DNA from: a phage
Strand: one strand, 5' to 3'
Length of the DNA stretch: 64,000 nucleotides
Sequence record: PQ327946.1
Within the stretch, counting starts at the first letter, position 1. Each line of letters begins with the position of its first letter. Under the pieces are notes generated by a model. The model had not been told where the DNA came from, did no database searches, and saw only the letters and a program-made list of their open reading frames with translations. The translations under genes and the position numbers were made by a program. Positions 42,845 through 48,017 of the stretch are shown here, one piece after another.

Positions 42845-43085
42845 CTCGGTCCCATGATTTAGCCATTAATTCGGACATAAATTCTTCAATGCGCGTTTCT
42901 TTAGATGGACTTTCACTATTAGAGACCGCAAGTTTGTAATCTGCAATAGGACAGAACATATCAAGGTCCATATTAAGATCGTCTTTGATTTTTTCTTCTG
43001 ACACGTCTTTATCGTATGTGTACAGATAACTATCACATGATTCTGATTTAATGTAAATTGCTATACTCATCTCAAATTCCTGCAT
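42834..43085 (-). CDS. Hypothetical small acidic protein
   Basis: 83 aa ORF. Confidence 0.4.
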   Translation of the reverse strand: MQEFEMSIAIYIKSESCDSYLYTYDKDVSEEKIKDDLNMDLDMFCPIADYKLAVSNSESPSKETRIEEFMSELMAKSWDRDDE

Positions 43086-43558
43086 TCGGTAATAAAACGT
43101 TCAACTTCATTATTCTTGGCCTTTATCTTGTCTTTACGTTCCTGTAAACTACTTTTAACAAGATTAATAGCGATGCCTACAGTACCTCCACCAATAATAC
43201 CACCAATAATACTTACAATAGTAGATGCTAATAAGATAGCGATAATATCTAGTACAGCAAAGGCACTTACTTTAGTACTAAAAAACCATACCGACGGTAC
43301 AAATATAATCCATCCTGTTATCCATTGGCACTTATTGAAAAACTTTTCAAGATCAGCTTGAGTTGTTCGTATTACTTCATCGATAGGTTGATATCCATTA
43401 ATGTATCTGTTCACAATAATACCTGCTGGCTGGTCGATTTTAAATTCTTGGCAAATATGTTTCACTAAATAGGATGGACATCCCGTCCAATCTACTGAAT
43501 AGTATGAAATACCTTCGTTGTCATCGTCTATATTAGACCAATATGTTTTGTTAATCAT
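43067..43558 (-). CDS. Membrane protein
   Basis: 163 aa; central hydrophobic helices and glycine-zipper-like segment. Confidence 0.5.
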   Translation of the reverse strand: MINKTYWSNIDDDNEGISYYSVDWTGCPSYLVKHICQEFKIDQPAGIIVNRYINGYQPIDEVIRTTQADLEKFFNKCQWITGWIIFVPSVWFFSTKVSAFAVLDIIAILLASTIVSIIGGIIGGGTVGIAINLVKSSLQERKDKIKAKNNEVERFITECRNLR

Positions 43559-44245: not shown

Positions 44246-44551
44246 TTATTTTCCTCGACATTCTTTAATGAAATTTTCTAGATTGGTAGATTCAATAGCT
44301 TTTTTACGAGCTTCTGCGTGTTCTTCTTCAGACAATTTACATTTATAATTGACCCAGACATTATGGTCGAAACTAGTCGTGGCATATAATAACAATGCTC
44401 CGACGAATAATAAAAACGGTGATAAGAATACAAAACCAGGAACACCATCCATATCGTAAGCCTTTTGTAATACTGCAACAGAAAGAGCTGCGTAAAAAGG
44501 TGATGCAAGTATTGTTAAAAGACCAATTCGGTTGGTTTCTGTTAATTTCAT
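44246..44551 (-). CDS. Membrane protein
   Basis: 101 aa with two hydrophobic helices. Confidence 0.45.
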   Translation of the reverse strand: MKLTETNRIGLLTILASPFYAALSVAVLQKAYDMDGVPGFVFLSPFLLFVGALLLYATTSFDHNVWVNYKCKLSEEEHAEARKKAIESTNLENFIKECRGK

Positions 44552-45604: not shown

Positions 45605-45856
45605 TTAAATTTCACGACATGCGATATTATATTCATCCCAGAGGTCGTCATGTGAAGCCTCTACCAATGGAACGATTGTACCGTTTATGTCTTCATTATA
45701 AGGACAAATTGTACAGTGCGCATCTTCGAATCGGATGCCTTTGTGTTCAGATTTTTTATAACGCATATCGAATATCTTTGCAAACTTTTCACGAGTAATG
45801 GTTTTACCAACCACTTTGGTTCCGATACTTTCGTAATAAATCATTGTGGACTCCAT
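45605..45856 (-). CDS. Hypothetical small protein
   Basis: 83 aa ORF. Confidence 0.4.
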   Translation of the reverse strand: MESTMIYYESIGTKVVGKTITREKFAKIFDMRYKKSEHKGIRFEDAHCTICPYNEDINGTIVPLVEASHDDLWDEYNIACREI

Positions 45857-45872
45857 TTAATTTGATAGGACT

Positions 45873-45902
45873 ACTATAACATAGCCCTATCTTGTTGTAA
45901 AC
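45873..45902 (-). promoter_or_regulatory. Early promoter GTTTAC-N18-TATAGT
   Basis: Same cassette type as 44580..44609. Confidence 0.45.
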
Positions 45903-45906
45903 TGTT

Positions 45907-46104
45907 TTAGCAAGAATAACTAGATGATACCCAGCCTTGAACAGTAATGCTATTATTGGATAATGAGATCGCGTCCTGGAGATTCAGACCTGCGTTATCT
46001 TCAATCCACAATGTAACTTCTTCGCGTTCTTCTGTTGCAATTTGGAACAGGTTTTCCAGAGCAGCTACTGCCGTACGTACAGCACAATCTAATTCACGAG
46101 ACAT
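45907..46104 (-). CDS. Small protein, tandem paralog family (C-terminal W-x-S-S-x-x-C)
   Basis: 65 aa ending GWVSSSYSC. Confidence 0.45.
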   Translation of the reverse strand: MSRELDCAVRTAVAALENLFQIATEEREEVTLWIEDNAGLNLQDAISLSNNSITVQGWVSSSYSC

Positions 46105-46113
46105 ATGGTTTCC

Positions 46114-46386
46114 TTAGCAAGTGTGAGAAGATGCGATCCAACCACCAGTTTCGAGGCTCAGGTTGTAGTCGTATTGGTAAACATCAGCCCATTCAGCATA
46201 GCCGTTTTTTGTACAACGTTCAAGATCGGCTTTAAGTTGTCCGGGTGAATGATAGGTTCCACCCATACCATAAGCTGGATACAAGTCGAATGTTGTGTTT
46301 TGTTTATCAGCAATTTCTTTGGCAGCCTCAATAGCTGCATAGATTTTTGCTACAGCTTCAGCCAGTTCGGTTTGTTCTTTAGACAT
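46114..46386 (-). CDS. Small protein, tandem paralog family
   Basis: 90 aa ending GGWIASSHTC. Confidence 0.45.
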   Translation of the reverse strand: MSKEQTELAEAVAKIYAAIEAAKEIADKQNTTFDLYPAYGMGGTYHSPGQLKADLERCTKNGYAEWADVYQYDYNLSLETGGWIASSHTC

Positions 46387-46395
46387 AATGATTCC

Positions 46396-46701
46396 TTAGC
46401 ACAACGCAGAAGACGAAACCCAAGCACCTTCAGTAATAACGTAACCATTACCTTCACGCTTAACATCGCCACCATTATTTTCAATTTCATCTTTCATCCA
46501 CTGGGATACGATTTCACCCTTAGGATAATAAGTACGACCGCTACCATAATCACCTACAGAAAATGATACGGCGTATTGGTCTGCGATCTTTGTTGCTTCT
46601 TCTTCGATACGTTCAGCTTGATTCAGAAGTTTATAAATTGCATCTGAAGCGGATTTGGCATCATTAAACTCTGGTACTTTAATTTCAATAATCTTACTCA
46701 T
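46396..46701 (-). CDS. Small protein, tandem paralog family
   Basis: 101 aa ending GAWVSSSALC. Confidence 0.45.
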   Translation of the reverse strand: MSKIIEIKVPEFNDAKSASDAIYKLLNQAERIEEEATKIADQYAVSFSVGDYGSGRTYYPKGEIVSQWMKDEIENNGGDVKREGNGYVITEGAWVSSSALC

Positions 46702-47057
46702 TTTCTACATTCCTTAATAAAGTTTTCTATTGTTTCATTTTCACGTCTAGCTAGGAGTTCATTATAACTAATCATTTGAGAAGCGTAAACCTTTTTATTT
46801 TTCTTGTTATGGCTTATAAAATCATAGTAAAAATAGACTACAGTACAAAAGGATGCGATGGATGCAAAGGCTTGGGTATACCGTAAGTCCTGCCATTGGT
46901 CTGTGAATCCACCGGTGTTCCCTATAAATCCTAACACAACGCCGTCAATAAGAAATCCAACTAATCCAAAGGCAAATCCCATGCCAATACTCATAATAAA
47001 AATTAGAATGTTCTCGCCAAGAGAAGGCCATACGGTTAAGAGTTGAGGCTTTTGCAT
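46698..47057 (-). CDS. Membrane protein
   Basis: 119 aa with hydrophobic helices. Confidence 0.45.
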   Translation of the reverse strand: MQKPQLLTVWPSLGENILIFIMSIGMGFAFGLVGFLIDGVVLGFIGNTGGFTDQWQDLRYTQAFASIASFCTVVYFYYDFISHNKKNKKVYASQMISYNELLARRENETIENFIKECRK

Positions 47058-47461
47058 CTTATTTCCTTAACGAATTCCATAGCTTCTTCATATTCATACT
47101 TTTTAACAGCTTCATCATACTGAGCTTGGGCTTTTGCGCACTGAACTTTCCATTCTCTTAATCGGGCTCTGTGATGGCGTCCTTGGTACCAATATCCCAC
47201 CCAGTTAATAGGCATTAATAAAAATGGTACAATAAACGACCCGGCTATAATAAGTAAAAACACTGCATCAGACGATATAACTTTATTGGAATCTAAAATA
47301 GCTCCTATAATCATAAAGATTAAAAATGCTAAAGCTAAAATAGGGCCAAATAGTACTTCATTTGGGATTAATTTACGCTTGTATTCATACGCCCAGGGCT
47401 TACTTGGCATGTATAGGGTTGGCTTTGACATATTCTCTACATTCCATAATAAATTGCTCAA
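47036..47461 (-). CDS. Membrane protein
   Basis: 141 aa with two hydrophobic helices. Confidence 0.45.
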   Translation of the reverse strand: MSNLLWNVENMSKPTLYMPSKPWAYEYKRKLIPNEVLFGPILALAFLIFMIIGAILDSNKVISSDAVFLLIIAGSFIVPFLLMPINWVGYWYQGRHHRARLREWKVQCAKAQAQYDEAVKKYEYEEAMEFVKEIRCKSLNS

Positions 47462-48017
47462 GGATTAAATTGTTAGTGAAATTAGGACTAACAACCATGG
47501 TTTCATAAAGCGCATCAATAGCACTTAAAGCATCAACTCTTTTAAGCAAAGGCTTGCCTTCATACATAGTTTCAGAATCGACGATTAACGTAAAGTAATA
47601 TTTTTTATTATTGACCAGAACTTCTGTATCAATATAAAACATGTTAGATCTTAAAAGCTTGTCTCTAAAGCCTACGTAATCATCTGAACGTTCGCTGATA
47701 TATTCCCATTCAGTGTTTAAACAACAAACAGACCACGTAGGAGCAACGAAATCAGTGAATCTAATATCATGGTCTGCAACTAGTTTAGCAATAGCTCCGA
47801 TATCATGAATCATAATACCTGGGGCTAATAAAGATTTTCGGCGATTTGCATATTCAGTTGTCTCATAAGAAGACGACCAGTACCATTTACGTCCAGTTGC
47901 AACATGTCGTAATGAATCAACTAAAGACGTAGGTGGATTTACCTTATCTCGGAACTCTTCGAACATTGAGTCAATATCATTATTTTGGTTTCGCATGTTA
48001 ACTCCTTTATTATCCAA
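47400..48017 (-). CDS. Hypothetical protein
   Basis: 205 aa ORF. Confidence 0.45.
   Translation of the reverse strand: MDNKGVNMRNQNNDIDSMFEEFRDKVNPPTSLVDSLRHVATGRKWYWSSSYETTEYANRRKSLLAPGIMIHDIGAIAKLVADHDIRFTDFVAPTWSVCCLNTEWEYISERSDDYVGFRDKLLRSNMFYIDTEVLVNNKKYYFTLIVDSETMYEGKPLLKRVDALSAIDALYETMVVSPNFTNNLILEQFIMECREYVKANPIHAK

Follow-up and report, generated by a model that had tools for sequence, protein, structure and literature searches.

Three small genes stand in tandem on the minus strand of a 64,000-nucleotide (nt) stretch of phage DNA (sequence record PQ327946.1; the whole stretch is called the window below), and their products, of 101, 90 and 65 amino acids (aa; genes 1, 2 and 3), all end in a short tail with cysteine as the last residue. 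Here we report that genes for proteins with this tail are linked to the gene of an enzyme carrying the Pfam domains DUF7277 and DUF7275, and that, across unrelated lineages of phages, this linkage is found whichever of the two families is taken as the starting point. We consider it very probable that the tailed proteins and the enzyme make up an obligate two-family module, and the tailed proteins look like one half of an undescribed two-part phage system.

Tailed small proteins and the DUF7277/DUF7275 enzyme occur together

In the window, gene 3 and the enzyme gene share a strand, and 328 nt separate the end of gene 3 from the start of the enzyme gene downstream. A DUF7277-DUF7275 protein of about 310-320 aa adjoins a tailed gene in Pseudomonas Otagovirus PN09, Phapecoctavirus ECO340P2 and the Erwinia jumbo phage Hallingskeid, as it does in Mosigvirus. 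For a forward test, 80 IMG/VR loci were picked solely by similarity to the enzyme. Tailed members were detectable with a hidden Markov model (HMM) in 69 of them, and in 78 once a plain regular expression for the tail was added, which contributed 93 tail-bearing open reading frames (ORFs) that the profile had missed. One of the two loci negative by regular expression (L075) has a near-variant tail, ...WESSESSEC; the other is that of phage CC31 (L024). All 127 HMM matches lie on the strand of the enzyme gene and 124 of them upstream of it, the gap being 683 nt in the median and at most 2472 nt; 123 of the 127 end in Cys, against a background of 4.5%. Two related contigs (L039 and L040; IMG/VR 3300031418_000008 and 3300031372_000007) carry the tailed genes about 5-6 kb downstream of the enzyme and on the opposite strand, a rare rearrangement.

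The reverse test started from 50 loci picked solely by small-protein patterns, which were derived from two subfamily alignments. The enzyme gene was found 0.2-2 kb downstream in 48 of these, and the other two are contigs that end at this point, so that all 48 assessable loci have it. Clustering of all neighbouring ORFs revealed no conserved family besides the tailed proteins and the enzyme, and the per-genus counts of phage records for the small proteins and for the enzyme are nearly equal.

The enzyme gene is present in 734 GenBank phage records and in more than 2,700 clusters in metagenomic protein space, and a tblastn search with the 101-aa protein found 485 phage records, with Escherichia, Shigella, Klebsiella, Enterobacter, Citrobacter, Serratia, Yersinia, Aeromonas, Pseudomonas and Erwinia as hosts. 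Because just 3 contigs, all from metagenome-assembled genomes (MAGs), carried the enzyme when the genomes of 185,579 bacterial and archaeal species were scanned, the module is essentially phage-borne. Both halves have been filed before, in the function-less bins phrog_899 and phrog_4882 (small proteins) and Pfam DUF7277/DUF7275 (enzyme). Neither the tail nor the linkage is annotated in these entries, and the family as defined by its tail is wider than either PHROG. A few depositors label homologs of the enzyme "nucleotidyltransferase"; members of the module are otherwise "hypothetical". A literature search for the family, the tail motif or the linkage to the enzyme returned no description. As far as we can tell from these searches the module had gone undescribed; a nucleotidyltransferase (NTase) with a small-protein partner is a known kind of pairing.

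The small proteins vary in their bodies and share their tail

An earlier note on this DNA, made from the letters alone, had described three consecutive genes with a common Cys tail. The ORFs are indeed present as described, and the pattern W.{1,3}S.{0,3}C$ is matched by 3 of the 542 window ORFs of at least 30 aa, all three in the array, while 9 of the 542 end in Cys at all; given these counts, the three-fold ending is not a matter of chance. The codons for the tail serines vary synonymously among the copies (TCG, TCT, TCA and AGT), and conservation therefore acts at the protein level. The ratios of nonsynonymous to synonymous substitution rates (dN/dS) against the Dhakavirus orthologs are 0.17, 0.41 and 0.20 for the three genes. 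Judging from the uniqueness of the tail in the window, the varying Ser codons and these ratios, we regard the three ORFs as real, protein-constrained genes.

An exhaustive search with the small-protein profile yielded, at E<=1e-3, 653 representative clusters. Of the best-scoring 150, nearly all are 65-145 aa long, and in them the end of the profile falls within 0-2 residues of the last residue of the protein. A 1446-aa protein that also matched (P0104) is a repeat protein and was discarded as a false positive. Two types of body were distinguished, with ...[FL]xxGDYGSGRTYYP... or ...AYGMGGTYY..., each followed by an acidic variable linker and then the tail. The tailed proteins have a median length of 89 aa, a pI of 4.4 and a net charge of -8. 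Copy number ranges from 1 to 6 per phage, and Dhakavirus has five in tandem. The idea of a diversifying family, put forward in the earlier note, is thus borne out by hundreds of divergent members in arrays of 1-6, whose bodies vary strongly while the tail stays nearly constant. Homologs keep the motif; its loss from them was one of the outcomes that the note had named beforehand as refuting.

In a set of 186 unique tails, with C as the last residue, W occupies position -7 in 142 cases and position -5 in 41, while S is found at -4 in 146 cases and at -3 in 149. From these position counts, the tail core is read as W-x-x-S-S-(x-x)-C-COOH. A subfamily of 74-77 aa (L009-L021, L025-L036 and others; for example L011, 9105-9329) carries the motif twice, as an internal D-W-L-[NS]-S-S-C-Y-G-E and a C-terminal W-Y-P-S-S-C. 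Since these members hold an internal copy, the motif does not appear to need a free carboxylate strictly.

How closely the three window proteins are related differs between pairs. The subfamilies of genes 1 and 2 match each other with an HH probability of 99.4%, and the two proteins align by pairwise BLASTP at E 3e-6. When the 65-aa protein is compared with the family profile, only its last 14 residues align (HH probability 46%); pairwise BLASTP against the other two gives E 3e-4 and 4e-4, and it belongs to a separate PHROG (phrog_4882 rather than phrog_899). By these comparisons the 101- and 90-aa proteins are clear paralogs, whereas for the 65-aa protein the tail alone is demonstrably common. 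The proposal that all three are paralogs therefore stands for the first two and is demonstrable for the third in the tail alone, and the motif beginning G-[GA]-W, as it had been written, likewise fits the 101- and 90-aa copies, the 65-aa copy reading Q-G-W.

An AlphaFold 2 (AF2) model of the 101-aa protein shows a compact alpha/beta domain with a predicted local distance difference test score (pLDDT) of 91 and a helix at residues 15-43, in agreement with the helical N-terminus that had been expected. The small proteins belong to no Pfam family, and NCBIfam and PADLOC scans gave no meaningful match. Sequence searches of the Protein Data Bank (PDB) with a small protein and with the enzyme found nothing significant, and no fold in the PDB matched the small proteins. 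Weak Pfam matches of the 101-aa protein to Peptidase_S78_2 and E217_Gp32 (E about 0.01, below the cut-offs) were taken as noise.

The partner enzyme resembles nucleotidyltransferases

The enzyme is about 45% identical across phages that are otherwise unrelated, and extended parts of its sequence do not vary at all. In 105 unique sequences, G6, S7, D25, D27, K125, H128, K139, R165, H194, D195, H198, E240, E241, E248, R249, G278 and R281 (window numbering) are invariant, or invariant wherever aligned. They include G6-S7 and D25-x-D27, which correspond to motifs I and II (hG[GS]...DxD) of NTases with the DNA polymerase beta (pol-beta) fold. The conserved motifs of DUF7275 are YDHDxIH, GVYEExCVLALERSQIP and KVCTSITSGWFRE.

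The best structural matches of the enzyme model are MenT1, MenT3 and MenT4. The matches comprise, with scores in brackets, a fungal NTase-like protein (6.9), TglT/MenT3 (6.7), MenT4 (6.6) and ANT(2'') (6.4), and also JHP933, TM1012 and LnuA; all of those listed cover the N-terminal 105-147 residues. Together with the G-S...D-x-D motif, these matches support the view that the enzyme is a pol-beta-type nucleotidyltransferase of the MenT/AbiEii/ANT kind. Its NTase motif is intact and its model NTase-like in fold, and the enzyme looks catalytically intact. The C-terminal region of about 170 residues, the best-conserved part of the enzyme, gave no convincing structural match. Nor was there a match to the DUF1814 (AbiEii) profile: in 25 members, Pfam gave DUF7275 and DUF7277 alone, even at E<=10. 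K125-x-S-H128 and K139...D143 resemble motifs III and IV of DUF1814 by eye only.

Identity with RlaP, also a phage NTase of pol-beta fold with an uncertain substrate, was considered and rejected, there being no match to PF10127. In the Erwinia jumbo phage and in a Streptomyces phage, genes for RNA ligase or polynucleotide kinase are found no more than a few kb from a DUF7275 gene; this RNA-ligase linkage is lineage-specific for the present enzyme, whereas the linkage to tailed proteins is general. An association with tRNA genes as a general feature was likewise discarded, as such genes occur near the enzyme in just 7 of 44 loci that are not T4-like.

C272 is kept in 102 of the 105 linked enzymes. 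A second Cys appears to swap between two positions, a Tyr at 243 usually going with a Cys at 221, so that most linked enzymes keep two Cys, namely C272 and one at 243 or 221. Distant homologs of DUF7275 without a tailed partner lack C243 in 4 of 4 cases and C272 in 3 of 4.

How the enzyme might act on the tail

We favour, tentatively, a reading in which the tail is an acceptor substrate for nucleotidyl transfer by the enzyme. The enzyme would act on the small proteins through their tail, because the tail is their only part conserved to a degree that matches the enzyme (about 45% identity). The acceptor reading is preferred since the invariant residues are Ser, Ser and Cys and since several divergent clients per enzyme fit a set of substrates; small nucleophiles of this kind are typical of modification sites. 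The absence of C243 and C272 from partner-less homologs was also counted in favour of the tail, rather than the body, as the inferred point of contact. The constant tail would be the part that the enzyme recognises, docked in or beside the catalytic pocket, and would accept the nucleotidyl group most likely through the hydroxyl of one near-invariant Ser, with the thiol or carboxylate of the terminal Cys assisting binding or chemistry. One enzyme could in this way mature a diversifying set of small effectors expressed early, and these would engage variable host targets through their variable acidic bodies.

In HEPN-MNT and GlnD/GlnE-type systems, a pol-beta-fold NTase nucleotidylates a Tyr of a dedicated or linked partner protein. 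The mechanism favoured here is of this type, as a proposal only; the candidate residues here are Ser or Cys at the extreme C-terminus, and no sequence relationship to these systems was detected. The earlier note had suggested a C-terminal modification in general terms. Because the genes are obligately linked to an enzyme of NTase fold, which that note had overlooked, the idea has become a concrete, though unproven, hypothesis.

Several observations weigh against an acceptor role. To our knowledge, protein nucleotidylation by pol-beta-fold NTases targets Tyr and not Ser or Cys. The AF2 model builds the tail W and its first Ser into a beta-strand within a confident fold (pLDDT about 90, residues 91-100), so that the tail may in part be a structural element and not a free acceptor peptide. 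Distant DUF7275 homologs in Streptomyces, Gordonia, Limnohabitans and Vibrio phages keep the NTase motifs and have no tailed neighbours; the enzyme would therefore have had another substrate ancestrally, and the small proteins could have joined it later as regulators. Phage CC31 (L024, Enterobacter) has an enzyme with C243 and C272 kept and no detectable tailed gene nearby. The ORF upstream of the CC31 enzyme ends in ...VCYSSSTF and is possibly a degenerate remnant of a tailed gene. Finally, the structurally closest characterised system is MenAT1, whose 68-aa antitoxin MenA1 is an inhibitor and not a substrate (PMC10435456).

This last point leads to the main rival, a close one although we rate it as rather doubtful, namely that the small proteins are MenA1-like inhibitors or regulators and that the substrate of the enzyme is an RNA 3' end (for example of tRNA, as for MenT). 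In this scheme nucleic acid would be mimicked by the acidic body, while the tail would block the active site in the manner of an acceptor 3' end. Such a role is consistent with MenT1, MenT3 and MenT4 being the nearest structures to the enzyme model, with the strong acidity of the small proteins, and with NTase motifs that persist in partner-less homologs and so point to a partner-independent substrate. In MenAT1, the MenA1 gene lies directly upstream of the toxin gene on the same strand, and the small genes hold the corresponding position relative to the enzyme here. MenA1 is the functional partner of its toxin and blocks the active sites of MenT1 (PMC10435456), a partnership that the tailed proteins and the enzyme would share. 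The present module departs from this scheme in several ways. An inhibitor that co-evolves one-to-one with a very conserved enzyme should itself be conserved, whereas here each enzyme has 1-6 divergent partners, united by the W-x-x-S-S-(x-x)-C tail alone. Compared with MenT and AbiEii, the enzyme has the extra, particularly well-conserved C-terminal region, and the lack of a DUF1814/AbiEii profile match, like that of a consistent tRNA-gene linkage outside T4-like phages, speaks against the inhibitor role. MenAT loci are cellular toxin-antitoxin loci; the present module resides in lytic phages, with just the 3 MAG contigs as finds among the cellular genomes scanned.

The small proteins might instead be interchangeable specificity adaptors, with the tail docking on the enzyme and each body recruiting a host target of its own to be nucleotidylated. 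Such a role would suit the combination of a constant tail with variable bodies and the presence of several paralogs beside one enzyme. It would also suit the position of the genes, in an early or hyperplastic part of the genome where genes for host takeover and anti-defence are typically found. We nevertheless regard adaptors as quite improbable: invariant S, S and C nucleophiles are unusual in a pure docking motif, and the scheme needs a promiscuous active site although the catalytic region is extremely conserved.

The function of the tail could also be independent of the enzyme, the terminal Cys serving in metal binding or oligomerisation or the tail acting as a stability or targeting signal, in which case the linkage would reflect a shared pathway or co-regulation without contact. 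The AF2 model, in which the W-x-S segment is part of the fold, argues in this direction, as do the members with a second, internal W-x-x-S-S-C, since the motif then does not always depend on a free C-terminus. Metal binding by the tail had been raised in the earlier note; the conserved Cys pair of the partner enzyme is the sole indirect hint of it. Overall we find an independent function unlikely, as a two-way linkage across phage families that lack other synteny is hard to explain without direct functional coupling, and as the gain of Cys in the enzyme correlates with the presence of the partner.

A fourth alternative starts from the chemistry of the tail. The NTase would activate a Ser, elimination would give dehydroalanine, and addition of the C-terminal Cys would close a lanthionine- or aminovinyl-cysteine (AviCys)-like ring. 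S-x-x-C-COOH has the spacing of the AviCys ring in epidermin-type lanthipeptides. The locus resembles the multi-precursor arrays of such ribosomally synthesised and post-translationally modified peptides (RiPPs) in its tandem, diversified small genes with a Ser/Cys motif at the C-terminus beside one conserved enzyme, and the conserved Cys pair and His residues of that enzyme could hold a metal. However, no homolog of a dehydratase, cyclase, LanD or YcaO is conserved nearby, and the flanking ORFs scanned match only PHROGs of unknown function, with no LanB, LanM, LanC, LanD or other known RiPP enzyme. RiPP precursors combine a conserved leader with a variable core, whereas here a conserved tail sits on variable bodies that AF2 folds confidently, most of the tail included (pLDDT 91). 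In the 41 of 186 tails with W at -5, mostly ending in S-S-C (some in S-S-x-C or S-x-C), the spacing is poor for a ring, and we know of no precedent for an NTase that activates Ser for elimination. A crosslink made by the enzyme is accordingly the least probable of the alternatives, and we give it very little credence.

Returning to the acceptor reading, the module may, with some reserve, be pictured as a "tail-tagging" system in which a C-terminal tag routes small effectors through one dedicated NTase and in which the modification would be either Ser/Cys nucleotidylation or Ser elimination followed by a Cys thioether ring.

The locus and its surroundings

The window is from a Mosigvirus, a T4-type phage resembling RB69. 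In the region of the array it shares 97.8% identity with Escherichia phage vB_EcoM_SA79RD and with further genomes of Mosigvirus (RB69/JS09-like, Straboviridae). The array sits in the e.2-e.3 part of the early region, with ipII/denV/e/nudE on one side and e.3-e.6 on the other, and gene 1 overlaps the stop codon of e.3. The three genes are separated by 9-nt spacers; each spacer has TAAGGA ahead of the ATG that follows, and the stop codon forms part of this Shine-Dalgarno sequence. Positions of all features are listed in Table 1.

Table 1. Features of the tailed-gene array and its partner enzyme in the window
Feature	Position	Strand	Remarks
Gene 1, 101 aa	46396-46701	minus	pI 4.6, acidic; GDYGSGRTYYP subfamily; ends GAWVSSSALC; phrog_899, E 1e-22; ortholog of RB69ORF139c
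Gene 2, 90 aa	46114-46386	minus	pI 4.7, acidic; AYGMGGTY subfamily; ends GGWIASSHTC; phrog_899, E 2e-18
Gene 3, 65 aa	45907-46104	minus	pI 4.05, acidic; ends QGWVSSSYSC; phrog_4882, E 1e-36; ortholog of RB69ORF136c
Tail codons of gene 1, W-V-S-S-S-A-L-C	46399-46422	minus	stop codon 46396-46398
Tail codons of gene 2, W-I-A-S-S-H-T-C	46117-46140	minus	
Tail codons of gene 3, W-V-S-S-S-Y-S-C	45910-45933	minus	
Partner enzyme, 318 aa	44623-45579	minus	predicted N-terminal pol-beta/MenT-like nucleotidyltransferase fold (Pfam DUF7277; G6-S7...D25-x-D27); C-terminal DUF7275, very highly conserved
Promoter-like site TTTACG-N17-TATAAT	46761-46789	minus	inside e.3, upstream of the array; consensus match only; equivalent in SA79RD annotated as T4-type middle promoter
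RNA hairpin, 11 bp	45864-45891	minus	directly after gene 3; dG -16 kcal/mol, z -3.4; no U-tract; annotated terminator in SA79RD
Promoter-like site TTTACA-N17-TATAGT	45873-45901	minus	overlaps the hairpin
Intervening small gene	45605-45856	minus	83 aa from first ATG, 79 aa as annotated in relatives; phrog_3723; no Cys tail

Instead of being a terminator, the hairpin behind gene 3 may serve in the processing or stability of RNA. The small gene between array and enzyme does not belong to the conserved module of other lineages, according to the neighbourhood clustering.

In the RB69 reference, RB69ORF139c, the counterpart of the 101-aa gene, is annotated as 71 aa and diverges after ...SQW, owing to a frameshift or a sequencing error, which suggests that the gene-1 paralog is split, and perhaps dispensable, in the RB69 laboratory strain. 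Product names are out of register over this region in several GenBank records (ESCO10, OM386655; HX01; JQD51; JK36), with labels such as "inhibitor of prohead protease", "helicase", "major capsid protein", "tail completion protein" and "baseplate hub subunit" shifted onto small ORFs and "sulfurtransferase" onto e.4. These names are annotation artefacts and could mislead. Identity with the T4 prohead protease inhibitor Inh, indicated by the label of the ESCO10 homolog, was rejected on this ground and because T4 Inh (226 aa) has no tail motif.

Five flanking minus-strand genes (43067-43558, 44246-44551, 46698-47057, 47036-47461 and 47400-48017) share a different motif near the C-terminus, [FL]-[IV]-x-E-C-R, as in NFIKECRGK, NFIKECRK, FVKEIRCK, FIMECREY and FITECRNL. 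They are of the e.2/e.3/e.4/e.5 type, and several are predicted membrane proteins; the motif is also found in homologs from phages ESCO10 and CC31.

Implications

The module is widespread, occurring in phages of Escherichia, Klebsiella, Enterobacter, Serratia, Yersinia, Aeromonas, Pseudomonas, Acinetobacter, Erwinia and Xanthomonas, among them several therapeutic candidates. Its strict pairing turns hundreds of orphan small genes into one testable system with a defined enzyme and a motif of 6-8 residues. Should the small proteins prove to be inhibitors, the module would be the first of a MenAT-like kind with multi-paralog antitoxins to be found in phages. Should the tail instead be a site of modification, the module would represent a new protein-modification chemistry or a new route to effector diversification in phages, and tagging through the tail would amount to a new kind of post-translational maturation pathway in viruses.

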